Shown one piece after another: positions 9,017 to 45,228 of a stretch of 64,000 bases of DNA (its first letter is position 1; the number at the start of each line of letters is the position of its first letter). The stretch lies in NCBI RefSeq assembly GCF_054482595.1, contig NZ_CM137008.1; one strand, given 5' to 3'. A program made the position numbers and the translations under genes. A model generated the notes under the pieces. That model worked only from the letters and a program-made list of their open reading frames with translations. It ran no database searches and was not told where the DNA came from.

Positions 9017-9026
9017 AAGAACACCA

Positions 9027-9048
9027 GAGCCTGCCAATGGCAGGCTCT
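9027..9048 (+). terminator. Possible gntP terminator hairpin
   Basis: agagcctgccaatggcaggctct forms a 9-bp stem immediately after the gntP stop; the downstream T-tract is weak. Confidence 0.35.
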
Positions 9049-9081
9049 GTTCGGATTGTCGGCAAAGTGCGCTTTGTTTAT

Positions 9082-9117
9082 GCCAGATGCGACGCTGACG
9101 CGTCTTATCTGGCCTAC
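9082..9117. repeat. REP element
   Basis: gccagatgcgacgctgacgcgtcttatctggcctac is a REP-type palindrome between gntP and fimH. Confidence 0.55.
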
Positions 9118-9190
9118 AAAGGGCTAACGTGCAGGTTTTTAGCTTCAGGTAATATTTGCGTACCTGCATTAGCAATGCCCTGTGATTTCT

Positions 9191-10093: not shown

Positions 10094-10112
10094 TACAATC
10101 ATCTCTTCGGGT

Positions 10113-10616: not shown

Positions 10617-10628
10617 GAGCATCTCCAG

Positions 10629-11159
10629 TTACTGATATTCAAGAGTGAAGGTAGCCGTGGCATTGATATGCCCCGCAGTGACAGGCACCTGTGTCGCCAT
10701 TAGCCGGGCGTAAAAATTCAACGTATTTGGTTTACCCGGCGTCAGGGTCGTCCACGAAATCGCGGACGATGGAGCATTAAGGGGTATTTGATTTTGCTGC
10801 TCATTCAGAAGCTGTATTCCCAATCCCGAAGCCGCTGACACCGTATTTTCAAGTGCAAGCAGGTTGGTATTGTGGCTATCTGCAACGCCGGTAAACCCAA
10901 CCTTTACGGCAGAAACGGCGTTACCACAGGGTGACAGCAAAATACGAAATGGAACGACAGGAGTCGTCGCGCCAATGTTGTTAAATTGCTTCGCCGCGTT
11001 TTCCATCAAATCAACAGTAAAATTGGTTGATTCAGCGGCCACACTACAGCCGTTATCTCTGACATAGCCGCGGATAGTAATCGTGCTATCCGCAGCCAAA
11101 GCGTGACTCACCGCCAGCCACAAAAAAGCGCACAGAAGATAAAAAGGTTTGTTTCTCAT
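10629..11159 (-). CDS. fimF: Type 1 fimbrial minor subunit FimF
   Basis: [22 protein letters not shown] signal peptide followed by a pilin domain ending in ...TFTLEYQ; operon position. Confidence 0.9.
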
Positions 11160-11168
11160 CACGCCCCC

Positions 11169-22640: not shown

Positions 22641-23621
22641 ATGGACGCAATAATATCGCCCGATTATTACTATGTTCTTACCGTTGCTGGTCAGTCTAAT
22701 GCCATGGCGTATGGCGAAGGACTGCCATTACCGGACAGGGAAGATGCGCCTCATCCCAGAATTAAACAATTAGCGAGATTTGCGCATACGCATCCCGGAG
22801 GCCCGTCATGTCACTTTAACGACATTATTCCACTGACTCACTGCCCACACGATGTTCAGGATATGCAGGGTTATCACCATCCTCTGGCAACGAATCATCA
22901 AACACAGTACGGCACCATTGGCCAGGCACTGCATATTGCACGGAAATTACTGCCCTTTATTCCTGATAACGCAGGGGTTCTCATCGTTCCATGTTGCCGT
23001 GGCGGATCGGCTTTTACCGCGGGCAGCGAGGGGACATATTCAGAACGGCACGGAGCCAGCCATGATGCTTGTCGTTGGGGAACGGATACTCCGCTATACC
23101 AGGATTTAGTCAGCAGAACGCGAGCCGCATTGGCAAAAAATCCGCAGAACAAATTCCTCGGCGTATGCTGGATGCAAGGCGAATTTGACTTAATGACCAG
23201 TGACTACGCGTCACACCCTCAACACTTTAATCATATGGTTGAAGCCTTTCGTAGGGATCTAAAACAATACCATTCTCAGCTTAATAATATTACTGATGCG
23301 CCCTGGTTCTGCGGCGATACCACCTGGTACTGGAAAGAAAATTTCCCTCATGCGTATGAAGCTATTTATGGCAATTATCAAAATAATATTTTAGCTAATA
23401 TTATTTTCGTCGACTTCCAGCAACAAGGTGCAAGAGGACTGACGAACGCGCCTGATGAAGATCCGGACGATTTAAGCACGGGATATTACGGTTCAGCGTA
23501 CCGGTCACCGGAGAACTGGACGACGGCACTGCGAAGCAGTCATTTCAGCGCGGCAGCCCGTCGGGGGATTATTTCTGACAAGTTTGTAGAAGCAATTTTG
23601 CAGTTTTGGCGCGAAAGGTGA
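22641..23621 (+). CDS. nanS: 9-O-acetyl-N-acetylneuraminate esterase NanS (SGNH hydrolase)
   Basis: 326-aa ORF with an N-terminal GQSNAMAYGEG SGNH-type motif; last gene of the nanCMS cluster. Confidence 0.85.
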   Translation: MDAIISPDYYYVLTVAGQSNAMAYGEGLPLPDREDAPHPRIKQLARFAHTHPGGPSCHFNDIIPLTHCPHDVQDMQGYHHPLATNHQTQYGTIGQALHIARKLLPFIPDNAGVLIVPCCRGGSAFTAGSEGTYSERHGASHDACRWGTDTPLYQDLVSRTRAALAKNPQNKFLGVCWMQGEFDLMTSDYASHPQHFNHMVEAFRRDLKQYHSQLNNITDAPWFCGDTTWYWKENFPHAYEAIYGNYQNNILANIIFVDFQQQGARGLTNAPDEDPDDLSTGYYGSAYRSPENWTTALRSSHFSAAARRGIISDKFVEAILQFWRER

Positions 23622-23775: not shown

Positions 23776-24705
23776 TTGAACAGCAGAAAATTTGCGAGCA
23801 TGATCGCAATTATTTCACTGCCAGGGATATCAATGGCTTCCAGTAAATCGCTACAGCAGGCAATTGCCAATATAAAAATCTGGCATAAGGGTGAACAGCG
23901 CGCACCGCATAAACCATTGTTATTGCTATACGTATTAGCGGGATACCTGAATGGACATCCACGCCTTTTCGATTATGGATCGGAAATCTACGAACCTCTG
24001 CACAGTTTACTGGAACGTTTTGGGCCACAGCGTTCACAGTACCGACCTGATATGCCGTTCTGGCGATTACAAGGCGACGGATTCTGGCAATTACACAATG
24101 CCGAGCTTTGCTCAACAGCAGGGAGCAGCCGACAACCGCCAGTGAAGGAACTGAACGAATACCACGTTGCAGGCGGTTTCGATGAACAGCACTACGCCTT
24201 GGTAACCGGCAATAAAAAACTCATCAATACTCTGGCGCAACAGATACTCGAAGCGCACTTCACCGAGAGTATTCAGGAAGAAATTGCTGACGAGCTGGGT
24301 TTTGATCTCCAGCAAATCCGTAAACAGTGCGACCCGTTATTTCGCAAAAATGTATTACGCGCTTATAAATACCAGTGCGCGATATGTGGCTTTAATATGC
24401 GCCACGACGACACCACCGTCGCGCTGGAAGCGGCGCATATAAAATGGAAACAGCACGGCGGTCCTTGTGAAATTCCTAATGGCCTGGCGCTTTGCGCAAT
24501 TCACCATAAAGCCTTTGATAAAGGATCGATTGGCCTGGACGAAAATATGCGGGTACTGGTATCAGATGCGGTAAACGGCGGAGGGATCGTTGAGAGATTA
24601 TTCTGGGATTTTGACGGGAAAACTATTGCGTTGCCGCAGGTGCGTAAAAATTACCCTTATGAGGTGTTTGTAGAGTGGCATCGGAAAGAGGTTTTTAGGG
24701 GGTGA
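23776..24705 (+). CDS. HNH-family endonuclease with an N-terminal domain of unknown function
   Basis: C-terminal motif YKYQCAICGFNMRHDDTTVALEAAHIKWKQHGGPCEIPNGLALCAIHHKAFDKG has the C-x2-C ... H ... N ... C-x2-H-H arrangement of HNH nucleases; the N-terminal ~190 aa has no domain I can assign; the true start may be the internal MASSK Met. Confidence 0.6.
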   Translation: MNSRKFASMIAIISLPGISMASSKSLQQAIANIKIWHKGEQRAPHKPLLLLYVLAGYLNGHPRLFDYGSEIYEPLHSLLERFGPQRSQYRPDMPFWRLQGDGFWQLHNAELCSTAGSSRQPPVKELNEYHVAGGFDEQHYALVTGNKKLINTLAQQILEAHFTESIQEEIADELGFDLQQIRKQCDPLFRKNVLRAYKYQCAICGFNMRHDDTTVALEAAHIKWKQHGGPCEIPNGLALCAIHHKAFDKGSIGLDENMRVLVSDAVNGGGIVERLFWDFDGKTIALPQVRKNYPYEVFVEWHRKEVFRG

Positions 24706-25017
24706 GGTAGCCATTATATATCTTTCACCTAGGATTTTAAATGTAATAGATAAAGTATTTTCTGACACCGAAAGTAGTATTTATGAGTACATAGCCACAA
24801 ATCAATTTTAAAATCTCAATATAAAATACGTTTACAAATATTCTAGTCAGAGTAAATATATATTCATTATAAGAGAATCCAATTATTAACCAATCGAAAT
24901 TACAAATTAAAAAACAATTGGCATGTTGAATTGTACACTAATTTATATACATAGTAAATTTACATCTATTCATGATATAATTATCGTGATATCAATTCAT
25001 TAATCAGGAAAATCATA

Positions 25018-25320
25018 ATGGAATTGTTAAATACTTATGATGATAAAGAAACAGCTGAAATATTTTTTGAAAAAATAGACGGAGAGAAAAGATTAGCAAG
25101 TGAGAGAGATGCTACAGAAACAGTCTATAACCTCTTCGGGCAACCAACATGGAAAAACTTTTATCTTCTTGATATGTTTAACCTAAAAGAGTTACAAGGG
25201 ATTATAGAGTGTAGAAAAAATGGACAGCCGTTCGACCAGGAACGACACAGGGAAATAATAAAAATGCTTGAATATGCAGCAAAATCGTTTGACCTAATTA
25301 TTCCTGCACATTGGCGATAA
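25018..25320 (+). CDS. Small hypothetical protein (100 aa), acidic
   Basis: ORF preceded by a good RBS (caggaaaatcataATG); very AT-rich; no recognisable motif. Confidence 0.35.
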   Translation: MELLNTYDDKETAEIFFEKIDGEKRLASERDATETVYNLFGQPTWKNFYLLDMFNLKELQGIIECRKNGQPFDQERHREIIKMLEYAAKSFDLIIPAHWR

Positions 25321-25323
25321 TAT

Positions 25324-25354
25324 CTGTTCCATATCTCACAGAGATATGGAACAG
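25324..25354. terminator. Bidirectional hairpin between the small ORF and the convergent 3-gene operon
   Basis: ctgttccatatct (25324-25336), 5-nt loop, agatatggaacag (25342-25354) is a perfect 13-bp stem, flanked by AT-rich sequence, lying between two convergent stop codons. Confidence 0.5.
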
Positions 25355-25366
25355 AATCATAATTAT

Positions 25367-28300
25367 TTACTCGCTAACCATCTTACTGAATAACTTCTCC
25401 AGATAAACGGGGCCTGTATCCTCAATAAAAAGCACATTTCTGGCTTCCAGATTTTCTTTTGAGTCAGGTACGTTTACTAAGTCAACATAACAAGTTTCAG
25501 AAACAATAAATGCACTTAATGATAAGTTATCATCCGATAATTTATGTTCAAGATTCTTAATTTCTTTATATAATCCGAACTTCGGATCATCAAGATTAAG
25601 ATTGCGAATGCCTTTTGGATCAATAAGACTTAGCCATTGTTTACCACTTTTATCATCGACTAACCACAATAAGAAATCCGGATAAAAATTACCCGCAGTA
25701 GCAAAGCCCAGGCCTTTATTTTTAGAATCCGCATTTCTTAGCAGATATAAACTTTTATCACCAATAATTTTCTGCCCTTTTGTCGAATCAACAAAAGACT
25801 GAAGATCCTGAACAAAAGTAATCTCGCTTGGCGCACCAAGTGCTGCCGGTCGCATTTTTAGCGGTATATTGGCATTTTTTTCAATCGAAAGAAGCGGGTA
25901 ATAGAGATGTTTATCAAAGGTAATAGCAACCATCCCGGATGCACTCCAGGATTTTGCTTTACCGATTTCGCCGTCGATGACCAATTGTTGTAATTGTTCC
26001 AGCCGACTGGCATAAGCCAACCCATCATCAGTTTCTTCGATCTCGAAATGGTACATTTTGATCATACCAGGATCATCTTCTTTCACCTGCGTGACTTCAT
26101 AAAACTGACCTTCATAAGCATTTTTCAAGGTGTTGTAAAAGCGATCAGTATAATCAGTCAGCAGACGAAGCATAATATCTTCCTGCTTAGCAATATCTGC
26201 ATATTGCTTAATCTCAAGCTCTGAAGCTGGAATCAAAAGGGTATACCAACTATTTCCGATCTTTGTCTTACCGGTACAAAAGTCGATCAAACGTTGTTTA
26301 TCCACACGTAAATTTGACCAGCCGCGTTGTAGTTTATAATTCTGAATGGCGAGATAAAGCCGATCAAAATCAAATGCACTAATGATTTTATAATCTAACT
26401 TCGCTTCATTGCGCACGTTAACCGGAGTATTGTCCCCTTTTCTGCTGGTATCAATCGACTCAAGTTTCGGGTATAAGTCCAGCTTAATATGCGGCTGCTT
26501 AATTTTCCCCTGAAAATCAGCAGGAACTTCATACAATTCAGGAAAATAGACACGTTTAAAGCCGAGTCTTTGATTATCTTTATAACCATCTTTAAGCTTA
26601 AGTGTTTTAAGCCTGGTTGCTGGCATATTTGGCCGAGTTTCAAAATTCAGCTCAAGGATCTCGTCACTTGGCGTAATCCCTTCATCTTCCAGGTATTGTT
26701 TAAAGGTTGCCATGTAATCGGCACGTACACCGAATACATTCAGTGTCTCTAATTTTTCCAGATGCAACCCTTTCGGACGCTCACCGGGTGTACTGCGTTT
26801 CAAAGAATAATTGCGACCTTTAAGGCGTACGCCACGACCAAATAACTGAATGATCTGTGAACCTTCTCCACGGCCCATATTGAGCAATCCCATCGTTGAG
26901 ACGCGCCAACTGCTCCAGCCTTCAGTAAATTTTCGCGAGCCGATCAAAATATGTAGTCGCGAGTCTTTGTCATTTAACGTATGAAAGAGTGACTTTGCAA
27001 AATCATCTCTCTGATAATCAAATGTCGTATCCTCTTCACACATTTTGTAAAGAGACGGTGCATCACCAATATTGATAAGGCCAAACGGTTCGGCCTCACC
27101 AACCTGTAATGCCAGTTCACCTTTACTGCCTATTAAATTCAGAACTCGCAGTCGCTGACCAGAGTGAGTGGTGTTAAACAAGCGAGAAAGAATATCTGCG
27201 TAGATATCTTCCGGAGCGTTCATTAGTGCAGTAAAGCGATTTTCAAAAATGTTACGCTCTTTGGTATCGAGGATTCGCGCTTTATTTTTAATGAGATCGT
27301 TAATCCACGCTTTTGCCTGCGTTTCGTGGTTTAAAAACCATGCTAAAAAACGCAATACTGCGTGAATGTCTGAATCTTCACCACTTACCGTATTACCGAC
27401 AAAAACCCACAGCGGTTTTTCGATATTAAATTCACTTAATTTTTCTTTATTCTTATTGAATAAATATTGTTGCTGATAAAAGCTGAGCAAACACGCGGTA
27501 AAATACTCATACCGACGCTCATCTTTTTTATCCTCTTCAGGATTAAGGTTAAGAATCAGTGATTCTTTACCATAACCATCCTCATAGAAGAATTTATAGG
27601 AGTAATCGAACAGAATCGATTTTCCATAGACCTCTCGCGTCGCCTGAATACGCGCATCTCGTTTTTCTTCGCTGGTTAATGCTATTTGCGCTAACTCTTC
27701 TTCGTTCAGTTTACCTAAGGCCGTTGTTTCAAAAAGCAGCTTTGCTTTTTTCTTCTGAATTTCTGTTTCAACTGCCTCAACATTATTGCCACCGGCTACT
27801 GCCTGGCCAAAAGTTGCTGAATATTCAAACGCAAATCCGTCACGTGTTAATTTGTCACGACGGCGCATCCAGGCACCAGCAGCACTTCCGGTGCCTTTAT
27901 GCCCTTCATCAATCAGAACCAGATTGTTGCCTTCAAATGCCTCAACGGCAACAGTTTTGTCACCCATTTCATCGGCAAGTTTATTGATATCAATAACTTC
28001 AATCGTGCCTTTGAAGGGCGCAGATTTACTCTTATCGAATAACTGGTATTGGGTAAATCCTGAGTTTTCCAGCTCATCTAAATGTTGCTTCGACAGGCGT
28101 TCATCCGGAGTAAGCAGGATGATTTTGTCGGGGTAATGGTGGGTATTACCGTTCTGGAAATAATGTAAGTATTGCAAAATATTGACATGCAATAGCAGTG
28201 TCTTACCAGAACCAGTAGCATTCCAGTATGCCAGTTTATTCAAATCATCCAGAATATATGATTTGAACTGATTAGCCCGGTCTTTTGCTGTTTTATCATT

Positions 28301-28747
28301 TTCAGCATTGTATGCTGCCAGCTCGTTATTTAGCCCATCGAGTAATTGCTGTTTACGATTGAAGTACCAGTCCAGGTAGATCTCGGTAAACAAAAGCGAC
28401 AAGTACTGAAAATATTTCATGTTCAGCACAGTGTCTTCTTTGCGATTACGGTGCTCAGTTATCTGCTGCCAGTGCTGCACGATATTGAGATCGTAACGAC
28501 GCAGTTCATCGAGATCGATAAGATCGACCTCGAATAAATAGTTACTCAGCTCATGGAAGAACAAACTTTGGCCATCCTCATGGATGCCTTCAAAGCGATC
28601 TTCACCTAACCGATTCTTCAGACCTTGCAATGTGCCATCTTTAAAAAAATGGAACATAAAGCGGTTCAAAACCAGTTGCTTATGAAAGCTCAGTTTGCTG
28701 TTTGTCTCTTTTTTAACAGCTTTACCGGTGGTCGGTTTTTTAGCCAT
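25367..28747 (-). CDS. SF2 helicase with C-terminal PD-(D/E)xK-like motif (Type III Res-like), third gene of the operon
   Basis: 1126 aa; Walker A NATGSGKT (~aa 177-183), DExH-like VLIDEGHKG (~aa 278-286), SAT-type motif III (YSATFG), motif VI-like QLFGRGVRL, and near the C-terminus YPDFLLWLVDDKSGKQWLSLIDPKG, which fits a PD-(D/E)xK nuclease signature; start overlaps the upstream gene's stop. Confidence 0.65.
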   Translation of the reverse strand: MAKKPTTGKAVKKETNSKLSFHKQLVLNRFMFHFFKDGTLQGLKNRLGEDRFEGIHEDGQSLFFHELSNYLFEVDLIDLDELRRYDLNIVQHWQQITEHRNRKEDTVLNMKYFQYLSLLFTEIYLDWYFNRKQQLLDGLNNELAAYNAENDKTAKDRANQFKSYILDDLNKLAYWNATGSGKTLLLHVNILQYLHYFQNGNTHHYPDKIILLTPDERLSKQHLDELENSGFTQYQLFDKSKSAPFKGTIEVIDINKLADEMGDKTVAVEAFEGNNLVLIDEGHKGTGSAAGAWMRRRDKLTRDGFAFEYSATFGQAVAGGNNVEAVETEIQKKKAKLLFETTALGKLNEEELAQIALTSEEKRDARIQATREVYGKSILFDYSYKFFYEDGYGKESLILNLNPEEDKKDERRYEYFTACLLSFYQQQYLFNKNKEKLSEFNIEKPLWVFVGNTVSGEDSDIHAVLRFLAWFLNHETQAKAWINDLIKNKARILDTKERNIFENRFTALMNAPEDIYADILSRLFNTTHSGQRLRVLNLIGSKGELALQVGEAEPFGLINIGDAPSLYKMCEEDTTFDYQRDDFAKSLFHTLNDKDSRLHILIGSRKFTEGWSSWRVSTMGLLNMGRGEGSQIIQLFGRGVRLKGRNYSLKRSTPGERPKGLHLEKLETLNVFGVRADYMATFKQYLEDEGITPSDEILELNFETRPNMPATRLKTLKLKDGYKDNQRLGFKRVYFPELYEVPADFQGKIKQPHIKLDLYPKLESIDTSRKGDNTPVNVRNEAKLDYKIISAFDFDRLYLAIQNYKLQRGWSNLRVDKQRLIDFCTGKTKIGNSWYTLLIPASELEIKQYADIAKQEDIMLRLLTDYTDRFYNTLKNAYEGQFYEVTQVKEDDPGMIKMYHFEIEETDDGLAYASRLEQLQQLVIDGEIGKAKSWSASGMVAITFDKHLYYPLLSIEKNANIPLKMRPAALGAPSEITFVQDLQSFVDSTKGQKIIGDKSLYLLRNADSKNKGLGFATAGNFYPDFLLWLVDDKSGKQWLSLIDPKGIRNLNLDDPKFGLYKEIKNLEHKLSDDNLSLSAFIVSETCYVDLVNVPDSKENLEARNVLFIEDTGPVYLEKLFSKMVSE

Positions 28748-28749
28748 TC

Positions 28750-31700
28750 TTAAACCTCCTCCGCAAACATCAGGTTCAAGAATTCAGGTTCGATCTGGCG
28801 GATTTTCAGGCTACGAACAATCTCGCCGTCTTCTTCATCAACGGTAAAGGCGGTAGGCAAGTTATGATCGCCATTGATATAGATAACGTCATACGTGTTT
28901 TCTTTTGCATACAAATCAAATCGGTTAGCATATTTATTCAATTCTTCATAACCGATCTTGTCGCAATCGCGCCACAGAATAAGGGTACGCTCGCCTGTTG
29001 GCAGCGTACCTTCAACACGCACATAGCCACGTTCGATATTGGATTCGATGGATTTCACATGTAATCCAATGAGATAGTTGAAAGTTTCAACTAAATCGAT
29101 GTTTTTACGCTCAGTGGCACCGGCGGAATCCGTCGCAATATCCATTTCGTAGTTAAATGGTTTTTTGAAATTATCGATTCCGAGAAAAGAATCTTTACTC
29201 TCATTTTTAATGAGATAATTTAATAGATAATCATTCCTCACATCTGAAGGCAATGTTTCGAAAAGATCTATGGGAGATTTTTTCAGTACTATATTATTTA
29301 AGCAATCTTCATAGCTTTCTAGTTTAATTGTTTTAAGAATATGTGATATACCGTTTTTATCCTGTGGATAACCTTTATTCCACTTATCGCTATAAACGGC
29401 TTTTACAATTCTAGCTTTTATAACTGAATCAGAATGTTCTCCCATTTCAACTAATATATATTTATGATCTTCAGATTTTTCTCTATTTCTATTAATAACA
29501 GCATGTGCGGTGGTTCCACTGCCGCCAAAAAGATCGACTATGGTTTCATTATTAGCACTATGCCATACTGAATCAATAACGCGTTCCATAGTACCTAAGG
29601 ATTTTGGATAAGAAAACAAACCTGCAGAGCCAAACATGGACGTTAATAAATTTGTGCCACCTATGGTAGCATTATATTGTGATCCTTGCCAAATACTAGG
29701 AAGCAGTAACCTTCTTGCGCTATCATGATATAATCTGTTTATGACAAATTTGTTTGAACTTACCAATTCACCTACTTCAATTGCTTTTTTAGCCCCTTCA
29801 TAAGAAAGCGACCAAACTCTTTCTTCCCCATTCTCACCAATGGGATAGACTCTTTTTAAACCTTCTTTGGTTTCACCTACCGGATAATTACCTTTTTCTA
29901 AAGGAACAGGTGGTGGTTCGACTCCTTTAACTTCAAATGTATCAGGGTCAACCAAAACTGCAAAAAAGCTTTCTGGACGACCAGGATTACCAATCCTAAA
30001 ATTATTATCTCCGGTACCAGCTCTTCTAAAACCTCTAGTTCGAATTCCATCCTCCACACTATCCCCTTTGAGAATATCCATTCCTTCTGGTATAGAAAAC
30101 AGACAATATTCATGTGTTCTCGAAACATTTGTTCTACCTGTCCCAGACCCAGGATAGTGCTCAACGATACATTGTAAAACCTCTCTTTCTGGATTGATAC
30201 TTTTTTCCAATTCTTTTAAAAGAGACATTTCTGTATCATCAATAGCATAACAAAAAACACCGTTATTATTTAATAGTTTTTTAGATAAAATGATTCTATC
30301 AGCCATTAATGTAGCCCATGAAGAATCCTTATATCCATTTTTATATAAGATAGGAGTTGCATCAGTATTATATGGTGGATCAAGATATATTATGCTTGTA
30401 CTTTTATCAAACTTAGTCTCAAGGATTTTTAGGGCTTGATAATTTTCAGAGTTGACCAATAGCCCATTAATCTCATTATCAATATTATCAATTGATCGAA
30501 TCAGTTCACATTTAAATTTAGAATCAAAAAAAGTAGTATCAACCATCAGATATGGTGAACTCTTGAGAAATTTCATATCCCGAGAGTTATGCTGTTGAAA
30601 TAGACCTAGCGTACTCCAATGTTTAAATTGTTTATCATTTACTAATATAGTTTGATAAAGAGCATCTGGAATTCTATCTAAAGTAATACAGTATTCCGTA
30701 GAAACAACAAACTTCTTCTTAGTCCAAAGTTTTTTCTGGAAATTCTCAATTTGTGCCAAAAATGTAATGAGTTCCAGTGCAACAGTACGCAAACATTGAA
30801 TCATGCGCAATTGTTTCTCAATATTGGCAAACACTTCTGCATTTTGCACATTATCGAGATTCATTACTTCATTTTTAATATAAAAATCCAGTTCGTTCGT
30901 TAAAAAACCACCGAGATCTTTATGGATAAAGTAGTCTGCTGTATTACGCTGGGTATAAGTTGTAAGGTGACGCTCCAACTCTGTACGTGACGGATTTTTT
31001 TCTGTTGGCGCACGTTTAGCAAGATCAACCCAATGCTGTTGAACTGTTTTATCTGCCAGAATTGTTGAAATAGCGGACTGTACTAAAGCATCCTGCTTAG
31101 TGCCCTTTTTCATTGCCTTATATTCGAAGTGAATAACTAACTCTTCTGTTTCAACGAGTTTACCGTCCACCACAGATGAGTTTTTCACCACTTCTACTGG
31201 CTTATATTCTTGTTCATACTCATCACCTTCTTCATCAATTTTGGTACGAACATGTGGCTCAATAAGTACAAAGCAGCGATCTAATTCATTATCCTTACGG
31301 TTATCTTTTGCTGTGTCCGCTGCGAGCAATTTAAAGCTAACTTTACGACCATCATCTAATTTAAATGAATAATTAGCAAAGTTTTCGCCACTTTTAATGT
31401 AGTACTGGTCCTTATTTGCCCAGTGCAACATCACTTCTTCGCCAGAATAAGGGATGGCGTAGGTATTACCTTTATAACGGCGTTTGCTGATAAAATCGCC
31501 GTTGTCATAATAACGAGAAAAGAAAGTGAGCAGATGGGAAAATACTGCATTTTCATGCTCATTTGCTCCGGATGCCATAGCCGCCAGTTGCTTTTTAAGC
31601 TCCTGTACTTTCGGGCTATCAGCAGGGTCCACACCCGCATCAGTTGCCGCTTTTATTGTCAGTTGCAACTGATGTTCTAATTCTGATTTATTGGCATTTC

Positions 31701-31884
31701 CTGCATCCGCCAGCGCAGACTGGATTTTGGCCTTCAGCTTATTATCCAGATAGTCGTTAATTTCATCAGCACGTGCATTTAAAATACGATAAATACCGAA
31801 ATCCAGTTCTGGTCGATCAATCTGAAAAATTTCTTTTAGCTTCTTAACTAATTCGTTGTACTTACTCATTATTTTCTCTTTCAA
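28750..31884 (-). CDS. Beta-class DNA amino-methyltransferase (N6-adenine or N4-cytosine; Type III Mod-like) with ~480-aa N-terminal extension
   Basis: 1044 aa; catalytic motif IV IIYLDPPYNT (~aa 498-507) lies before the AdoMet motif I DLFGGSGTTAHAV (~aa 784-796), the circular permutation of beta-class MTases; the N-terminal ~480 aa is unassigned. Confidence 0.7.
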   Translation of the reverse strand: MKEKIMSKYNELVKKLKEIFQIDRPELDFGIYRILNARADEINDYLDNKLKAKIQSALADAGNANKSELEHQLQLTIKAATDAGVDPADSPKVQELKKQLAAMASGANEHENAVFSHLLTFFSRYYDNGDFISKRRYKGNTYAIPYSGEEVMLHWANKDQYYIKSGENFANYSFKLDDGRKVSFKLLAADTAKDNRKDNELDRCFVLIEPHVRTKIDEEGDEYEQEYKPVEVVKNSSVVDGKLVETEELVIHFEYKAMKKGTKQDALVQSAISTILADKTVQQHWVDLAKRAPTEKNPSRTELERHLTTYTQRNTADYFIHKDLGGFLTNELDFYIKNEVMNLDNVQNAEVFANIEKQLRMIQCLRTVALELITFLAQIENFQKKLWTKKKFVVSTEYCITLDRIPDALYQTILVNDKQFKHWSTLGLFQQHNSRDMKFLKSSPYLMVDTTFFDSKFKCELIRSIDNIDNEINGLLVNSENYQALKILETKFDKSTSIIYLDPPYNTDATPILYKNGYKDSSWATLMADRIILSKKLLNNNGVFCYAIDDTEMSLLKELEKSINPEREVLQCIVEHYPGSGTGRTNVSRTHEYCLFSIPEGMDILKGDSVEDGIRTRGFRRAGTGDNNFRIGNPGRPESFFAVLVDPDTFEVKGVEPPPVPLEKGNYPVGETKEGLKRVYPIGENGEERVWSLSYEGAKKAIEVGELVSSNKFVINRLYHDSARRLLLPSIWQGSQYNATIGGTNLLTSMFGSAGLFSYPKSLGTMERVIDSVWHSANNETIVDLFGGSGTTAHAVINRNREKSEDHKYILVEMGEHSDSVIKARIVKAVYSDKWNKGYPQDKNGISHILKTIKLESYEDCLNNIVLKKSPIDLFETLPSDVRNDYLLNYLIKNESKDSFLGIDNFKKPFNYEMDIATDSAGATERKNIDLVETFNYLIGLHVKSIESNIERGYVRVEGTLPTGERTLILWRDCDKIGYEELNKYANRFDLYAKENTYDVIYINGDHNLPTAFTVDEEDGEIVRSLKIRQIEPEFLNLMFAEEV

Positions 31885-31889
31885 ATCAA

Positions 31890-34781
31890 TTAAATAACTT
31901 TCCAGCGGATGGAAAAAAGCTCGGTGATATCCGTTTTTTGCTTCATCCGCTCTTCAAGGGCACTGATGAGTTCATCCCGCTTGTCGGCGATCTCATCTTC
32001 AATGTCAAAAATTTCCATACGTTGGCGCTTCTGCTGCCGCTCCAGTAGCTTCAGCTTTTCCTGGTTTTGCTTTTGTTCTTCGATCGATTGTGCCAGTCTG
32101 GCTTCTCGCTTCAACGACTTGATTTGCATTTTGGTATCGCGTAATGCTTCTTCCGCCGCAAAGATCATGTCTTCAGCCCATTTTTCCAGCTTATCTCTTT
32201 CCGCTTCAAAAAGGACATTGTTCTGCTCCAAAACTTCCGCAAGCCTGGCGTCAATTTGCCTGTTCTTGAGTAAGATCAAGTCATCAGGTAATGCATCTAA
32301 ACTTGCCGAATTATCCAGCTTTTCGTTGGTTATTGCAGACAAGTTGAACAGACGTTTACAAGCCTCACCATCTACCACACGGCCGCTGTCAGTTTTCGCG
32401 GTAAAGACTAAAAATTGCTGCCGGTTAAACGCATCAACAGTAAGCAAATTTAGTGTTAACCACCCTGATAGCCCTTTCAGCTGCTCAGCCACCGAGACTT
32501 TCGTTGTGTGGTTACTGTAATCGAAGATGACTTCAGCTGTTTTCGTCTCCTGGGCTTTGGCTCCCTCAATGACGTACTCACCCAGCGGATGATTGATCCG
32601 ATATGCAAAACTGTGGTGATCCTGCATTTGTAACGCACTATTTTGCCTGCCATCTTTGCGCAACAGCTGATACTGCCCCACAGGCAGTTCATTGACTGAC
32701 TCACGTAAAGTAAAACGATGATGCTCATGATCAAAATCAGCATATTGTTTGAGCTGCTGACAGGTAACGGCCCAAAACCAACGACCGACTTTATCCAGAC
32801 GCTCCCGAGCTTCATCAAGCCTTATTTTAAGGATATCGTGAATATCTTCATCAAAATGCTCAAGCAACTGTTCCTGCGTCTTCTGCATCTTGAGATTGAT
32901 TTCATCTTCCAGCTCTTTCTGCAACCTTTCAAAAGCCAGCTCTATCTCCTCGGGGGTACGGCATGACTCATAAATTGACTGGATCCTTTTTTCAAAATCC
33001 ACTCCATTTTCTATGCTGCCAAGCACACTATCCGATGCACCAAACACGCCATCAAACAGGCTGAACTTTTCAGTTAAGAGTTCAAGAACTCGTTGATCGG
33101 CCTGGTTTCGCTGATTGAGGAAGTTAATAACAACCACATCAAACTTTTGCCCGTATCGGTGACAACGCCCAATACGCTGTTCAATGCGTTGTGGATTCCA
33201 GGGTAAATCGTAATTGATCAGTAGCGAACAAAATTGCAGGTTCACCCCTTCAGCTGCAGCTTCTGTAGCTATCATGATTTCAGCATGATCTTTGAAGTGG
33301 TCGATCAAAGCCGAGCGTTTATCAATTTGCGCCGACCCGGTAATACGAGAAGATCCCTGATATTCCTCGCGCCATTGCTGGTAGATCTTGTTTGCCTGCG
33401 GTGTATTGTTTGTGCCACTAAAGGTTACTACTTTCCCCTGGTAGCCATTGTTTTCCAGAAAATGTGCAAGATACTGTTGAGTTCGCATTGACTCCGTGAA
33501 GATGATGACTTTTTTTGCAGCCCCCATTTCGGCAAGCTGTGCAAAACCTTGCTCCAGGCCAGAAAGCAACTCTTTTGATTTGGTATCAGTGCCAATCTGT
33601 TCTGCTTTGACAATGAGTGATTCCAGCTCATTGATTTCTGCCTGAAGCGCGTCTGAATCGACAACTTTGCACTCGGTATCTAAAGCCACTGATTCGGCAT
33701 CTTCCACGATGTCATCTTCAAGATCGTCATCCATTATGATCTGTTGGATGATGTTCATATCATCTTCAACGATACCTTCCAGCTTTAACCTTTCTAAACG
33801 ACTCTTAAGGATCTGCAAGTTATTCAATACAGCTTTCGTACTTGAGGAAAGTAGCTTTCTGAGAATAAGCCCCGTCAGATGCCGGTGTCGTTTTGGTAAG
33901 GCATAGCTATCCTCACGTTCAAGCAATTTTTGTACGCGTTCATAAAGATCCTGCTCCTGTTCGCTCGGATAGAAAGGAATAGTGATCGCTTTACGTTCTG
34001 TATACTTGATGTACTCCAGCACATTCTTGCGTAAAGTTCGTTTGATAAAACGCGACAATCGCCCCTTCAACTCCGCAATATCGCTATCTGCCTGCATATA
34101 TTGCTTTCTGAACGCTTTAACTTCGCCGAAGGTATGTTCATCTATAAGCGTCGACATGCCATACAGTTCCATTAACGAATTCTGTAAAGGCGTTGCGGTC
34201 AGTAGTAATTTTTTCCGCCCATCAAGCGCACGCTTTAACGCTTGCCCCATTTTGTTACTTTCTCGATGAGCATTACGCAGTTTATGGGCTTCGTCGATAA
34301 CAACCAGATCCCACATTTCAGCCACCAATTTTTCTTCTAACCGAGCAGCATAGTGGTATGACATGATAGTGATCGATTTATTATTTAAGGGATTATGGAT
34401 CCCTTCTTTTTGAAGCTGGCTATACGTTTTCGCGTCCAACACCTGAGAAGGTAGATTGAACTTTTCCTGTAACTCGCTCGCCCATTGGCGACGCAGTGAA
34501 GCAGGACAAATGATCAACAGTTTACGTTTTCTTTCAGCCCACAACTGGCAAAGCACTAACCCCGCTTCAATGGTTTTACCTAAACCAACTTCATCGGCAA
34601 GCACAACACCTTTGCTTAGCGGATTTTCAATAGCAAAAAGAGCCGCCTCAATTTGATGAGGATTTAGATCTACGCTTGCATCAAACAGCGATTGAGACAG
34701 ACGGTCCACCCCATTGTTTGAATGGAGAATGGAAAGTTCATGCGCAAAATATTTCGCATGATAAGGTGTTGTACCAATCAT
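31890..34781 (-). CDS. SNF2/RAD54-family helicase, first gene of the operon
   Basis: 963 aa; motif I LADEVGLGKT (~aa 61-70), motif II VVIDEAHKLRN (~aa 160-170), motif III LLLTATPLQN, motif VI QRIGRCHRYGQK; long charged coiled-coil C-terminus. Confidence 0.75.
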   Translation of the reverse strand: MIGTTPYHAKYFAHELSILHSNNGVDRLSQSLFDASVDLNPHQIEAALFAIENPLSKGVVLADEVGLGKTIEAGLVLCQLWAERKRKLLIICPASLRRQWASELQEKFNLPSQVLDAKTYSQLQKEGIHNPLNNKSITIMSYHYAARLEEKLVAEMWDLVVIDEAHKLRNAHRESNKMGQALKRALDGRKKLLLTATPLQNSLMELYGMSTLIDEHTFGEVKAFRKQYMQADSDIAELKGRLSRFIKRTLRKNVLEYIKYTERKAITIPFYPSEQEQDLYERVQKLLEREDSYALPKRHRHLTGLILRKLLSSSTKAVLNNLQILKSRLERLKLEGIVEDDMNIIQQIIMDDDLEDDIVEDAESVALDTECKVVDSDALQAEINELESLIVKAEQIGTDTKSKELLSGLEQGFAQLAEMGAAKKVIIFTESMRTQQYLAHFLENNGYQGKVVTFSGTNNTPQANKIYQQWREEYQGSSRITGSAQIDKRSALIDHFKDHAEIMIATEAAAEGVNLQFCSLLINYDLPWNPQRIEQRIGRCHRYGQKFDVVVINFLNQRNQADQRVLELLTEKFSLFDGVFGASDSVLGSIENGVDFEKRIQSIYESCRTPEEIELAFERLQKELEDEINLKMQKTQEQLLEHFDEDIHDILKIRLDEARERLDKVGRWFWAVTCQQLKQYADFDHEHHRFTLRESVNELPVGQYQLLRKDGRQNSALQMQDHHSFAYRINHPLGEYVIEGAKAQETKTAEVIFDYSNHTTKVSVAEQLKGLSGWLTLNLLTVDAFNRQQFLVFTAKTDSGRVVDGEACKRLFNLSAITNEKLDNSASLDALPDDLILLKNRQIDARLAEVLEQNNVLFEAERDKLEKWAEDMIFAAEEALRDTKMQIKSLKREARLAQSIEEQKQNQEKLKLLERQQKRQRMEIFDIEDEIADKRDELISALEERMKQKTDITELFSIRWKVI

Positions 34782-35170
34782 CTTTTCTCTCTCTTCGCTG
34801 TACTTTTGACGATAACCTGCTGAATTGAATCAAGATAGTAAAAGGATACGCCAATAGTGGTTGATCCTTGAAGTAAGGACATCTCCGGTTGCGGGCCTTT
34901 GACACATAAAATCAGCAATTTTACGCATCGTTTCATGGCTAAACAATGGCACATTAAGAATGCCACTCGCTAAATGCAATCTATTTCCTGAGCCATTAGA
35001 CCAAGGCAATGAAGTTTTATATCTACTTAATTTTCAGGATGATGAATGAACATCATTGATGGGAATGGGGCTTCCGAAGTTCTTAGATTATCAGCGTTAC
35101 ATACAAACAAAGTAGTGAAAACACAGGCACAAAAAAAGCCGCCCTTGAGCGACTCGATTTGCATACGATG

Positions 35171-35193
35171 TGGTGCGAAGGCCGGACTCGAAC
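35171..35193 (-). other. tRNA 3'-end fragment (leuX-like T-arm plus acceptor), probable att-site remnant
   Basis: Reverse complement ggttcgagtccggccttcgcacca has the T-loop GGTTCGAGTCC and a CCA end, closely resembling the 3' end of E. coli tRNA-Leu (leuX) as recalled; the sequence to the right does not continue as a tRNA. Confidence 0.55.
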
Positions 35194-35881
35194 ATGTGAC
35201 TTAACCTCATGATTTAAAATTGTTAATAATAAACAATATCATCTTATACCAACACAGATACCAACACGAAAAATCACTGGTTTTCGGCATCGAACCAGGA
35301 CAATCAGCTCCTGATTGAGATACCGAGCTCTGTTACTCGTCATCTTCCTCGACAGGCTTCATTGCATCAAGTAGTACTCGCACCATCGCGATAGAACCAA
35401 TCCGGATAAAAGCATCTTCTCCATCTATATCTGTTAACTGATATCGCTCACTTGATGCCGGATAAGTGTGTCGATTTGCAGCTGTGTACTCTTTTGTACA
35501 GCCAGAATGTGGCTGACTGAGGTGGAGCAGATAATGTCCCCGTTGACCACTTCCGGACGGGAGGCTGTGATTTCAGACATAATTGATATTCCTTTTTGCA
35601 GATAAATGAAAACGCCAGCCCTGTTCAGGCTGGCGTCAGTGGAATGAAGTATGGTGAGTAATATTTATCGGTTCTGGTGCAGAAGCTGCAGTTGGCGCAG
35701 GGTACGGATACCCTCCCTGGCCTGTTCGATACAGGGCAACAGTGCTGCCGAATCCGTTTTATCCTCATCGTTGTCAAAGATAATTCCCGATTCGCAGTCG
35801 ATATTGTCCTGCAGCCACACAATCAGAATATCCAGCGCCGTTTCTGTGGTTAATGATTTCATCCTGTGTCTTTTGTCCTGG

Positions 35882-38080: not shown

Positions 38081-38569
38081 TCAGTCAATGATGCGCATAA
38101 TGGCGTTGCATTCCGGATGTTGCAGGGCGTAATCCCGCAACCGATAATAATGGACCGTCATGGCATAACACTCCGTACGACAGGCATGATGACTGTACGT
38201 CATCAGACAGGCAGCAATGCCGGCGGCTTCCGGGCTCATTTCAGCGCGGTTACCGTTCATGGCATTGAACAGTACCCAGGTTTCTCCATCATCTTCATCC
38301 GGTTCGGGCGCCATAAATGCGCCGCCGTTATTCAGGGTGTACAGATTCCAGATACCACCGCAGTAGTCTTCACACAGACGGTCCATCCAGCCGAAGACAC
38401 GGGGCTCCAGGGTCACCCACTGTGGAATGAGGCCAAAGTGCTGCGGCCAGAAGCTGATGCGCTGTTCATCAGGGACGGGAGTGGCAACCAGTTGAGACTG
38501 GTTATTCCCTGATGCAGTAGTTACGGAAACAGAAGGTGTGGTGGAATTATGCGAAGAGGTTGTCATGAG
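38081..38569 (-). CDS. Antirestriction protein, ArdB/KlcA family (YfjX-like)
   Basis: ~160-aa protein in the conserved position upstream of radC in CP4-type elements; family assignment from memory of YfjX/KlcA. Confidence 0.55.
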   Translation of the reverse strand, partial: LMTTSSHNSTTPSVSVTTASGNNQSQLVATPVPDEQRISFWPQHFGLIPQWVTLEPRVFGWMDRLCEDYCGGIWNLYTLNNGGAFMAPEPDEDDGETWVLFNAMNGNRAEMSPEAAGIAACLMTYSHHACRTECYAMTVHYYRLRDYALQHPECNAIMRIID

Positions 38570-42581: not shown

Positions 42582-43712
42582 ATGACCGGACGTAAAAACA
42601 AATGCGTCAGAAAAAATTGTAACAATCAGGTTTTCTCAGTAAAAATGGCAGTGGAGAAAAGACTGTGCAGAAAACATTATGAGAGGTTTTGTGAGCTCAA
42701 AAAAAGAAGAGAGCAAAATCCTGTTCACAGATTAAATGAAGCATTGCCAAGAAAGATAAAAGGACCCAAAAGTAAGAAAAAATTAGTAAAAGAAAGAGAA
42801 ATCATTAACAGCAGGAAGAAACATAAACAGGAGCAGGGACCATCGCTGGTTGAACTTAATAAAAAAGTTCGTGAGATACTGAAAACTCCGGCATGGAGAA
42901 CGCTGGAAACGAGAATTCGAAGAAACGGTATCACATTTAAATCAAAAGCAGAGTTAGATGTACTTTCTGAACTTTATGCAATTTATTCATGGGTTTCATA
43001 TTGCAAACGGAGCGATAATTATTCTGTGTGGTTTTTGAATTGTCCGGATGTAAATATAAATCTTCATGTGTGCGAATGCAGGTCTTCTGAAAGCGATTGT
43101 TATCTACCATCCCGTTTTATTATTCTTCCAGCTCCATTAAGGCAAAAAGTAAAAAGAAAATACCCTGCTAATTCGTCTGGAGTGTCAGGATATAGTGATT
43201 CAAAAAGTCTTTATAAGACTGTTTTGTCTGTTTGTGGTGGGAAAAGAGAAACCGAATTGTTCTTTTATTCACTGCCAGTAAAGACTAATCATCATCCTTA
43301 CTGGATTAAAAGTGGTGTGGTTAAAAGATTTCCGCCTATTTTTGGCTTGTTGTTTTATGAACAGGAAAGGTTAACAGGAGGTGTTTTTCGTTATGTGTTG
43401 ATAAAGTTTTATAATGCTTTTAAGGAGAATTTGTTTTTTGTTGAGATTATCTCGTGCTGTTTTCTTGTTGAGTTTTTTCATGATATTGATTCATTTTTTA
43501 TAAATCAACGATTAAGTAAGTTGGAAATTTTTATAGATAAGTGGAGGGAGGGTAAAGAAATCTGGATAAAAGCATATCTACAACTGATACATAATGCATT
43601 GGGAATAACTGAAACAGAAAAACTCGTCAATCTATATAATTCATTTTTTACTGATAAAGTGGTTCTCTGGGATGAATCAGTAAAAAAAGTTAAGTGGATT
43701 TATGAGAAATAG
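42582..43712 (+). CDS. Hypothetical protein, Lys/Arg-rich N-terminus with CxxC pairs, very AT-rich
   Basis: 376-aa ORF; N-terminal KCVRKNCNNQ ... CRKHYERFC and a strongly basic stretch; no homolog recalled. Confidence 0.35.
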   Translation: MTGRKNKCVRKNCNNQVFSVKMAVEKRLCRKHYERFCELKKRREQNPVHRLNEALPRKIKGPKSKKKLVKEREIINSRKKHKQEQGPSLVELNKKVREILKTPAWRTLETRIRRNGITFKSKAELDVLSELYAIYSWVSYCKRSDNYSVWFLNCPDVNINLHVCECRSSESDCYLPSRFIILPAPLRQKVKRKYPANSSGVSGYSDSKSLYKTVLSVCGGKRETELFFYSLPVKTNHHPYWIKSGVVKRFPPIFGLLFYEQERLTGGVFRYVLIKFYNAFKENLFFVEIISCCFLVEFFHDIDSFFINQRLSKLEIFIDKWREGKEIWIKAYLQLIHNALGITETEKLVNLYNSFFTDKVVLWDESVKKVKWIYEK

Positions 43713-44252
43713 CACCATTTAACTGAAAGCTACCATAACGTCTTTTTGATCACACGCATGATAATGCGTCTCATTTAAATTTCGTTTTTTGGGTCATGGA
43801 AATTTTCCGAACATCAGTGATAATGAGGGTTTTGTTGTTTTTGTTTCTGCAATGTTTGAGGGCTGTTCCTGGAGACGATTCGTTGCTTGTGAGCAAGTGG
43901 TGGTCCGCTTTACTGGACGAGTTTTGCATTTGTTGAGTGGTGAAATGGAAGTAAAAAGAGCCCCTTTCTGGCAATGACTGAAAAAGTCAGTAGCGTGTAA
44001 CAGTAAAAACTAACATAAAGTGATTATCGTATGATTATGACAATAACTTATAACTTTTATGAAAAGAACAACAGAAACTACGAAGCCATAACAGATTCCT
44101 GAGACCATGTTTTCTGAGGTAGAGAAAATAATTCAAGAGTAAACCAGTTTGTTTTTTGGTCAGTAAAGAACCATGCCTGATGTGAAAACGGGTAATCAAC
44201 ATTCAGTCTGCATGGATGTTTGGAAGAGTTGAGAATGTCGGTATGATACTAT

Positions 44253-44324
44253 ATACACGTATTTTTACTAAGCATTTCAGTAAGTGTTATACACGTATTT
44301 TTACTAAGCATTTCAGTAAGTGTT
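44253..44324. repeat. 36-bp tandem direct repeat (2 exact copies, then a degenerate third)
   Basis: atacacgtatttttactaagcatttcagtaagtgtt occurs at 44253-44288 and 44289-44324, followed by atacacgtattttcataaacacttctacaagtgtt...; lies in a ~1.25-kb ORF-free stretch. Confidence 0.8.
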
Positions 44325-45228
44325 ATACACGTATTTTCATAAACACTTCTACAAGTGTTTTCGTTAAGCATTGCTATACACATCCAGTTTAGTAAATCTT
44401 TACGTTAACTAAATCAGTTTAATGCTGCTGTAAAACCTTTCTGCTTCAGCAATCAATCTGCTATTCGATTTTACTGATGTTACGTTTAACCTTTCCTGAT
44501 ATTTCGAGTTTCGACGTTAGCATGAGAAAAGTATCTTTACGCTAAATCAACCCGAACTTTCCTGAAGTAATCTGACGTTCTTTTCGATGTGCTTACGACG
44601 ATTCTGTTAAACGACTTTCTGGATGTTTTGATAACAATCAGATTTAGGCATTAACGATTCCTGACGTTTTTCTTTTCCGTGTAAGGTCATTGTTTTCGTC
44701 ATGATGTGACTCTTCTTGCATTGCGAAAGTGTGATGAACGGTTTTGGTGTTTTGATTCAGATGAAGTTTACGTTATCGATGGTTAATCGTTTTTATGGTG
44801 CGTAGTGAAACGTAACGCTTTCAGGAAGGGAAAATCGATTCTGATGGGGATGATCGTGTAACGGCGTTATCTGTAAACAGGTTTTAAACATGTCATTCGC
44901 ATCCGTGATTAAGTTGTGTGATTAAGCTGTAGGTTTTGGCGTTGTTGTTGATTTGCATTACCAGGAAGCGTTCTGGTTGCGTTTCTGGTGTTTTGTTTGA
45001 ATGTTCTGTGGATCCTTTTCCCTTCTGACTTTTCTCGTTGTCCATGTCGTTTTTAAATCCATTCGCTGTTCTTGAGTGTTTTTACCCTGTGTGTAGGATT
45101 ATCTTTTTGTTCCGTTTCAATCACTCTTAATCAGAAAGTTGTAGCATTGCTCAATGCCGGATGCCGTAAAGTTTTACCGCGGTGATTAATGATGTGAAGT
45201 CAATCCAAATCAACGGAGATCTCTCATC

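Follow-up and report, generated by a model that had tools for sequence, protein, structure and literature searches.

An SNF2 ATPase encoded with a Mod-like methyltransferase and a Res-like helicase-nuclease in an Escherichia coli leuX island: a likely three-component restriction-modification system

What is the function of an SNF2-family ATPase gene placed directly in front of a DNA methyltransferase and a helicase-nuclease? The question is raised by three adjacent genes in a stretch of Escherichia coli DNA of 64,000 nucleotides (contig NZ_CM137008.1, assembly GCF_054482595.1; hereafter the window). Gene 1 encodes the SNF2 ATPase, gene 2 a methyltransferase (MTase) resembling the Mod subunit of Type III restriction-modification (R-M) systems, and gene 3 a helicase-nuclease resembling the Res subunit. 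An earlier note, made from the letters alone, had singled out this trio as a candidate defence system of unusual composition. Our analysis indicates that the locus is likely a three-component, ATP-dependent R-M system, in which a Type III-like Mod/Res pair is joined by a dedicated SNF2 motor, and which is carried as cargo in the leuX hotspot. Confidence differs between the parts of this reading: the locus is very probably a methylation-based defence of the R-M type, the SNF2 protein is probably a working part of it, and the specific role proposed below for SNF2, drawn by analogy, is held with low confidence. The trio is best read as a widespread family of SNF2-associated, Type III-like R-M systems, which is also found on IncF plasmids. 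The new point is the SNF2 gene that accompanies the pair, the Mod/Res-like pair itself being already catalogued; nothing in the locus is categorically new, all its domains being familiar and its function deduced.

The three large minus-strand genes announced at first reading (963, 1044 and 1126 amino acids) are present, intact and tightly packed, the second measuring 1044 residues from a TTG at 31884 and 1039 from the ATG at 31869 that was chosen by the Prokaryotic Genome Annotation Pipeline (PGAP). Their stop and start codons had been described as overlapping, which is not the case. Gene 1 ends with TAA at 31892-31890, leaving 20 nt before the ATG of gene 2, or 5 nt before the alternative TTG (open reading frame, ORF, 28750-31884); gene 2 ends with TAA at 28752-28750, 2 nt ahead of the ATG of gene 3 at 28747, and a GGAGG lies within its 3' end. 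This spacing indicates a single operon. The region 25000-35500 is 100% identical to that of E. coli DETEC-C31, and at least 80% of it is held by 148 of 5,426 complete E. coli genomes (about 2.7%). In DETEC-C31 the genes are annotated, in order, as 'SNF2-related protein', 'DNA methyltransferase' and 'DEAD/DEAH box helicase family protein'; public databases use the same generic names and sometimes, in addition, 'type III restriction endonuclease subunit R'.

Every motif that had been quoted for a full SNF2 set in gene 1 was located by position: GLGKT at residue 66, DEAH at 163, TATP at 195 and QRIGRCHRYGQK at 535. They lie in a motor of about residues 30-600, to which Pfam assigns SNF2-rel_dom (42-289) and Helicase_C (437-544). 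Across 37 complete trios the motifs GLGKT, DEAH, TATP and QRIGRxxRxGQ are invariant or nearly so, with at most one exception per position; GLGKT, TxTP and QRIGR are invariant in the 37 orthologues, and the His of DEAH is kept in 36 of them. The nearest relative of known structure, judged by sequence matches in the PDB, is RapA. Among PADLOC families the top match is DrmD (PDLC02619, 659 bits, profile positions 25-717 of 872), followed by weaker matches to BrxHII, HmaA, DpdE and ZorD. In NCBIfam, DISARM_DrmD_b scores 667 bits, under its cutoff of 950, and the second curated DrmD model 290, under a cutoff of 610. The C-terminal 330 residues matched no specific PADLOC family and gave one chance-level match only.

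Gene 2 was found to carry DPPY at residue 497, upstream of FGGSG at 781. Motif IV thus precedes motif I, the beta-class order of amino-methyltransferases known from Type III Mod subunits, and the earlier note's assignment is borne out by PDB sequence matches to Mbo45V (5e-20), to the adenine-specific DNA methyltransferase (Mod) of entry 6k0w (3e-15) and to EcoP15I Mod (1e-10). The Pfam domain N6_N4_Mtase (PF01555) covers residues 498-817. The PADLOC model MTase_III (PDLC03646) spans the whole protein with 1652 bits; besides a faint PD-Lambda-5_B, all of the 20 PADLOC matches are to Type III or Type II MTase models, and none is to DrmMI or PglX. In 37 orthologues DPPY is invariant and FxGSG invariant or nearly so.

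Inspection of identity along gene 2 revealed a catalytic core flanked by conserved extensions, one N-terminal (residues 1-460) and one C-terminal (about 830-1039). The first 425 residues match two MTase_III clusters only. When the E. coli protein was compared with its orthologues in Salmonella, Serratia and Shewanella, identity over residues 1-400 was 72-100%, mostly above 80%, and over residues 900-1039 it was 88-100% for Salmonella and Shewanella and 72-100% for Serratia. Over residues 550-750 it was only 6-32% (6-26% for Salmonella and Shewanella), and the conservation profile of the 37 orthologues falls to 28-36% in the same segment, which is the hypervariable core of the target-recognition region. 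The Arsukibacterium orthologue retains 74-86% identity there. From these comparisons, the target-recognition region has been exchanged by recombination among close relatives, which is what diversifying selection on a sequence-specific enzyme should produce. Partners would find natural docking surfaces in the conserved termini. A docking site for SNF2 in the N-terminal extension is unsupported, since loci that lack SNF2 retain this extension.

All the superfamily 2 (SF2) helicase motifs that had been listed for gene 3, and its C-terminal PD...D-x-K-like segment, were located (GSGKT 179, DEGH 280, SAT 310, QLFGRGVR 634, PD 1023-1024, DPK 1043-1045). In the homologue alignment, helicase motifs I, II, III and VI show no or almost no variation, Pfam gives weak ResIII/DEAD matches at residues 167-313, and the PADLOC model REase_III (PDLC03654) spans the protein from end to end with 2326 bits. 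No PDB sequence match was obtained, even with a profile of 43 sequences. A structure model of the full-length protein (pLDDT, a measure of predicted local accuracy, 86) has the right topology for a PD-(D/E)xK nuclease, alpha-beta-beta-beta-alpha-beta, and its nuclease domain matches restriction-endonuclease folds. In the model, the first helix carries E975, the second strand opens with D1024 and the third closes with D1043-P-K1045. Among 43 homologues E975, P1023-D1024-F1025, P1044 and K1056 are invariant, and D1043 is D in 42 and E in one. The C-terminal nuclease, on which the earlier proposal depended, is thus present as a predicted but apparently genuine PD-(D/E)xK fold with conserved catalytic residues. 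When gene 3 and 42 of its homologues were scanned with Pfam, the only hits were to ResIII, DEAD and SWI2_SNF2, none being to DUF1998, and gene 3 had no PADLOC match to DrmA, DrmB or DruE.

The gene 3 family comprises 2,493 cluster representatives at 50% identity (E <= 0.001), of which 784 have E < 1e-30, and its members are mostly full length (1,020-1,130 residues). Enterobacterial copies, from Salmonella, Yersinia, Serratia, Pectobacterium, Cronobacter, Enterobacter and Klebsiella, are about 89-93% identical and have therefore spread horizontally in recent times. A single phage record, Thermus phage phiLo (MH673673.1, 18036-20477), contains a homologue, 35% identical over 77% of the protein and annotated as putative type III restriction endonuclease subunit R.

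As genes 2 and 3 are matched over their full length by PADLOC models, their close relatives have already been catalogued as a putative Type III R-M pair. The earlier note had counted a known-system model accounting for the three-gene architecture against its own reading; this applies in part, to genes 2 and 3, which the generic MTase_III and REase_III models span and which standard tools would label an ordinary Type III R-M pair. No paper naming or describing the trio was found in the full-text literature, searches with RefSeq accessions included; most subscription journals and REBASE lie outside this coverage, and an earlier description is possible.

Is the SNF2 gene a regular companion of the pair? 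One genome per species was scanned (100,044 species), giving at least 559 confirmed gene 3 loci, of which the best 80 were analysed; 56 of these were informative, the remaining contigs being too short to judge the presence of SNF2. SNF2, MTase and Res genes occur together in 48 of the 56 informative loci (86%). These are found in Gamma-, Beta-, Alpha- and Deltaproteobacteria, and also in Chlorobi, Chloroflexi, Planctomycetes, Acidobacteria, Nitrospirae, Actinobacteria, Spirochaetes, Kiritimatiellae and a Gastranaerophilales genome (Melainabacteria-like). The order is SNF2-MTase-Res in 40 loci and MTase-Res-SNF2 in eight (L036, L040, L043, L045, L046, L047, L051 and L052), which belong to Haemophilus, Rodentibacter, Neisseria, Kingella, Moraxella, Cardiobacterium and a further Pasteurellaceae genome. 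The trio genes lie on the same strand in every trio locus, with intergenic gaps mostly of 2-90 nt, those next to SNF2 typically of 20-90 nt. Since the linkage is kept across two gene orders, it is strong evidence of function.

The SNF2 protein is the best conserved of the three, with 52-55% identity to the E. coli protein where Res has 39-40% and MTase 33-40%. Pairwise-identity matrices of 37 complete trios were correlated in a Mantel-type test, which gave 0.81 for MTase and Res, 0.39 for SNF2 and Res and 0.27 for SNF2 and MTase; none of 500 permutations reached any of the three observed values. Given the tight co-evolution of MTase and Res, and an SNF2 that is highly conserved yet loosely tied to them, these comparisons suggest that SNF2 may act on DNA or on a conserved surface, and not on the specificity module.

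Some loci depart from this compact arrangement. The SNF2 gene is split into two ORFs in both Haemophilus loci, and the methylase gene in one Neisseria locus. Simple-repeat phase variation is typical of Type III mod genes. It was considered and set aside, as no simple-sequence repeats were seen that would explain these splits or, within the window, support phase variation. In about 20 loci unrelated genes are inserted between MTase and Res. They encode a YhcG/DUF1016-like PD-(D/E)xK protein in eight loci, an AAA ATPase in three, a RhuM-like protein in two, and others elsewhere (for example L014 8491-9558, L018 6794-7864 and L019 8147-9355, with about 17 further ORFs in 13 more loci). Type I R-M operons often harbour embedded genes of this sort, and the arrangement also resembles Hma operons.

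The family is also carried on plasmids, mostly predicted to be conjugative: 215 plasmid records match gene 3, 25 of them at full length. A copy of the trio lies at 2611-12363 of pEC316_2 (L088), an E. coli IncFIB/IncFII plasmid, with a gene 3 product 63% identical to that of the window. It is preceded by a helix-turn-helix (HTH) gene of 81 amino acids, whose end overlaps the start of SNF2, the position of a controller protein. This copy is bracketed by IS30 and IS26, and plasmids of Klebsiella, Raoultella and Citrobacter have the same HTH-trio arrangement. Only partial matches, perhaps remnants, come from about 190 other plasmid records, including most of the 112 from Escherichia.

These data can be set against other explanations of the locus. 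The one that survives best is that genes 2 and 3 are the Mod and Res of an ordinary two-gene Type III R-M system, and that the adjacent SNF2 gene, carried on the same island, is functionally independent of it and encodes, for instance, a defence helicase acting alone or a factor like RapA. The generic PADLOC models span both genes wholly. Moreover, in eight of the 56 informative loci the MTase, with its N-terminal extension, and Res are intact and no SNF2 is found in the available sequence, which extends at least 5 kb upstream of MTase and at least 4.7 kb downstream of Res; the pair may thus work without SNF2, and can at least persist without it. The co-evolution of SNF2 with the pair is moderate, far under that of MTase with Res. 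Against independence, SNF2 is adjacent in the 48 other loci, across many phyla, and two gene orders with constant strand and short gaps are hard to explain without functional linkage. SNF2 is also the most conserved of the three and accompanies the pair on IncF plasmids, and both other proteins exceed their Type III counterparts in size (1039 residues versus 644 for EcoP15I Mod, 1126 versus 970 for EcoPI Res) and contain conserved extra domains. An ordinary two-gene system with an unrelated neighbour is therefore improbable in our judgement.

The eight loci without SNF2 and its moderate coupling to the pair also weigh against a three-component system, and so do several further points. The neighbour analysis relied on tblastn with all four E. 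coli proteins and a crude ORF map of the best 80 of at least 559 loci. In gene 3, K1045 is K in 36 of the 43 homologues and His in seven. No homology of gene 3 to EcoPI Res was detectable, hhalign aligning motifs II-III only, with a probability of 4%, and its motor resembles those of Type I HsdR and of SNF2 proteins at least as much as that of EcoP15I Res. Type III mechanics are thus applied to gene 3 by analogy, and of the 'Type III Res arrangement' ascribed to it at first reading the architecture stands and a family relationship to EcoPI Res is not detectable. A consensus scan of the minus strand found no promoter for the operon beyond the level of shuffled sequence. Finally, no experimental report of methylation, restriction or phage protection was found for this family in the literature searchable.

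A second explanation is that the trio is mainly a selfish addiction or epigenetic module, serving post-segregational killing, stabilisation of plasmids or islands, or methylation-based regulation, and not defence against phages. R-M systems are known to act as addiction or stabilisation modules, and both the carriage on conjugative IncF plasmids (the 215 records above) and the position in integrase-associated tRNA islands agree with such a role. This role is, however, compatible with defence and does not exclude it. The swapping of recognition regions, the location in a defence hotspot beside a second restriction enzyme and the embedded defence-type genes are signatures of selection by phages and mobile elements, and no simple-sequence repeats for phase variation were seen. 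We regard a mainly selfish function as quite unlikely. The weakest explanation, a divergent member of DISARM class 1 or ARMADA with the helicase-nuclease in place of a YprA-type helicase, draws on the closeness of gene 1 to DrmD, on an SNF2-methylase-helicase-nuclease composition that mirrors ArmA-ArmB-ArmC and on the presence of ARMADA in the same leuX hotspot of other E. coli strains, but it is very improbable given the lack of a DUF1998/YprA signature in gene 3 and 42 homologues, a gene 3 without PADLOC matches to DrmA, DrmB or DruE, a beta-class Mod-type methylase without DrmMI or PglX matches, a gene 1 under the curated DrmD cutoffs, and an island with neither a PLD nuclease nor a GajB-like gene.

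How could the three proteins of an SNF2-assisted R-M system work together? Type III enzymes act through a Mod dimer, hemimethylation and ATP-triggered movement of Res, with cleavage at two inversely oriented unmethylated sites. SNF2-family proteins are double-strand DNA translocases, and RapA recycles stalled RNA polymerase. The methylase and Res steps proposed here are modelled on this established Type III behaviour, and the SNF2 step on that of its family and of RapA. The methylase, probably a dimer as in Type III Mod, would read a short asymmetric site and, on host DNA, methylate one adenine. Where incoming DNA is unmethylated, the enzyme would recruit the helicase-nuclease via its conserved extensions, and the latter would move or switch along the DNA using ATP, then cut. 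As a double-strand DNA translocase, the SNF2 protein would most likely either feed or loop DNA to the Mod-Res complex, or clear DNA-bound proteins and stalled complexes in the way that RapA recycles RNA polymerase. In either case, restriction would be extended or made faster.

Under a bolder proposal, SNF2 would be indispensable as the third subunit, and the trio would stand as a distinct class of R-M enzyme coupling a remodeller-type double-strand DNA translocase to a Mod/Res-like pair. We put it forward tentatively, as possible but on balance doubtful. If it were true, the motor could pump DNA to the nuclease and so remove the Type III need for a head-to-head pair of sites; alternatively, it could make the site readable by stripping off phage DNA-binding or anti-restriction proteins. 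The trio would then be a bacterial example of the eukaryotic partnership between SNF2 proteins and DNA methyltransferases (DDM1/HELLS with DNMTs, DNMT5), and a widespread defence family would be mislabelled as plain Type III R-M by annotation tools.

The features of the locus are collected in Table 1.

Table 1. Coordinates, within the window, of the operon and of the features next to it
Feature	Coordinates	Strand	Evidence
Gene 1: SNF2-family ATPase, DrmD/RapA/BrxHII-like, 963 aa	31890..34781	-	ORF, Pfam, PADLOC, NCBIfam, PDB sequence match
Gene 2: Mod-like beta-class DNA methyltransferase, predicted N6-adenine, 1039 aa	28750..31869	-	ORF, Pfam, motifs, PDB matches, PADLOC
Target-recognition region of gene 2, aa 501-780, between motif IV and motif I	29530..30369	-	Windowed identity, conservation profile
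Gene 3: Res-like SF2 ATPase/translocase with C-terminal nuclease, 1126 aa	25367..28747	-	
PD-(D/E)xK nuclease domain of gene 3, aa 935-1126; candidate catalytic E975, D1024, D1043, K1045, K1056	25370..25945	-	
Small ORF, 100 aa, convergent, directly downstream of gene 3	25018..25320	+	Annotated hypothetical
Non-coding sequence upstream of gene 1, presumed operon promoter and leader	34782..35135	-	
3'-end remnant of tRNA-Leu (leuX), 23 nt	35171..35193	-	Alignment with strain XH990

The sequence upstream of gene 1 holds no notable ORF and no HTH regulator, and a controller or HTH gene such as that of the IncF plasmid copy was found nowhere upstream of gene 1 within the window. A terminator-like hairpin (35155-35136) closes the tRNA remnant just upstream of the presumed leader. 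This remnant aligns to the intact leuX region of strain XH990, bar a deletion of 1 nt, and then diverges; the match to leuX-adjacent strains stops at its end. No intact tRNA was found within the window by ARAGORN, the intact leuX lying outside it. The tRNA att remnant that had been noticed beside the locus is therefore the 3' end of leuX, and it marks an att-type boundary between an older island and a later-integrated CP4-like element. The latter extends from 35300 to at least 47000 and encodes DUF957 and DUF5983 proteins, a CbtA toxin, a YeeU antitoxin, a JAB-domain protein, a DUF932 protein and a GTPase. It also contains an antirestriction gene (38081-38566), about 3.3 kb from the R-M operon.

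On the other side, a phosphorothioate-DNA-binding HNH restriction endonuclease is encoded at 23833-24705 on the plus strand (longest ORF from 23776), about 660 nt from gene 3. It scores 433 bits with NCBIfam NF045808, over a cutoff of 180, and is a modification-dependent, Type IV-like enzyme; with this gene beside the operon, restriction functions in the island number at least two. Just upstream of the endonuclease gene is a short HNH pseudogene fragment. At the left edge of the island, nanS (sialate O-acetylesterase, about 22863-23207) is annotated as a truncated pseudogene, its C-terminus having been removed by the arrival of the island or by a later deletion. The leuX(-fim) hotspot is the most occupied defence island of E. 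coli and houses ARMADA, Druantia III and Zorya II in other strains (PMC12707154, PMC12458937).

The 100-residue ORF that converges on gene 3 has counterparts of 53-68% identity at the same position in Salmonella, Serratia, Arsukibacterium, Pseudomonas, Shewanella and two metagenome-assembled genomes; more distant trio loci lack it. Pfam, NCBIfam, PADLOC and PHROG gave no match for it. A role as lineage-specific regulator or accessory is possible for this ORF, and its membership of the system is uncertain.

In Salmonella enterica (loci L003-L005, 13869-17384 and 1-3635) the trio is flanked by a 1171-residue AAA_11/AAA_12 helicase-PLD protein and CcdAB, with a dynamin-like GTPase cluster on the opposite side. 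This region looks like another composite defence island.

The GC content of the operon is 0.33-0.45, versus about 0.50-0.56 in many other 1-kb bins of the window. It is likewise low, 0.37-0.47, in the adjoining nan region (20-25 kb), so that the AT-richness claimed for the locus relative to its flanks holds against most of the window and is weak against the nan flank. Further AT-rich stretches, with a GC content of 0.33-0.37, were found at 2001-3000, 43001-45000 and 50001-51000, which suggests additional horizontally acquired segments.

Going by the model matches, rule-based tools would probably label genes 2 and 3 as Type III R-M, with SNF2 left over. Beyond the weaker matches given above, the SNF2 gene matches DrmD models only, these belong to DISARM, and DISARM is incomplete here; the trio would then go unnoticed, although the gene 3 family alone amounts to the 784 clusters counted above, spread over many phyla, and the trio is also carried on Klebsiella and E. 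coli IncF plasmids. Pairs of SNF2 protein and methylase recur in DISARM, ARMADA, BREX type 3 and Hma/BR, and a compact trio of three proteins with recognisable Mod/Res chemistry would offer a tractable model for the role of the SNF2 motor in such systems. In Enterobacterales, phage therapy and plasmid transfer are likely to be hindered by the trio.

Where does the trio stand among known systems? The earlier note placed it with neither canonical Type III R-M nor DISARM, and the comparison upholds this, given the conserved third gene and the lack of any DrmA, DrmB, DruE or DUF1998 match. With Type III systems such as EcoPI and EcoP15I it shares the order Mod then Res with a gap near zero, a beta-class adenine MTase whose recognition region lies between motif IV and motif I, and, in architecture, an SF2 motor on the N-terminal side of a C-terminal PD-(D/E)xK nuclease, the fold of which comes from the model. 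It differs from them by the SNF2 ATPase as a third gene in 86% of the informative loci, by a gene 2 product that adds conserved extensions of 460 N-terminal and 200 C-terminal residues relative to EcoP15I Mod, by a gene 3 product that is longer than EcoPI Res and not recognisable by sequence as a member of its family, and by the lack of phase-variable repeats here. From Type I R-M (HsdR) it differs in having no HsdS, a nuclease that is C-terminal and not N-terminal, and a beta-class methylase with its own recognition region. The 'EcoMI' system reported in GI-leuX of ST131 was also considered as a match; it is Eco31I and unrelated.

BREX needs BrxC and PglZ, and Hma/BR needs a DUF499 ATPase and a DUF1156 methylase (PMC12839542). 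The trio resembles Hma/BR and BREX type 3 (BrxHII) in pairing an SNF2 motor with an adenine methylase, and gene 1 has its weaker matches to HmaA and BrxHII. In contrast, the island contains no DUF499/BrxC ATPase, PglZ or DUF1156 methylase, there are no HmaB- or HmaC-type matches, and the nuclease is on a separate SF2 protein instead of being fused to the SNF2 helicase as in Hma. Membership of BREX or Hma/BR is thus ruled out by the missing BrxC/DUF499, PglZ and DUF1156.

Membership of DISARM, ARMADA or Druantia is likewise ruled out, by the missing YprA/DUF1998 signature and the missing PglX/DrmMI-type methylase. DISARM class 1, composed of DrmD, DrmMI, the required DrmA and DrmB, and optionally DrmC, is also a methylation-linked system of defence islands, with a DrmD-like SNF2 ATPase directly upstream of an adenine MTase; the island described here has no DrmA, no DrmB (DUF1998) and no PLD nuclease, its methylase is of the beta-class PF01555 type and not of the DrmMI type, and gene 1 falls under the curated DrmD cutoffs. 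ARMADA types I and II consist of ArmA (BrxHII/RapA-like SNF2), ArmB (PglX-like methylase), ArmC (YprA helicase-nuclease with an OB/DUF1998 zinc module) and ArmD (Bell et al. 2025, PMC12458937). The trio has in common with them the set of SNF2 ATPase, methylase and large helicase bearing a C-terminal nuclease, as well as the E. coli leuX-fim hotspot with its 'immobilised' island beside an att remnant (PMC12458937). The differences are a gene 3 that is not YprA/DUF1998, a gene 2 of Mod type and not of PglX type, and the absence of a GajB-like fourth gene from the island. Judged from its domains, the trio follows the design of DISARM and ARMADA, in which an SNF2 motor, a methylase and a helicase-nuclease are combined, and builds it from a different methylase and a different effector.

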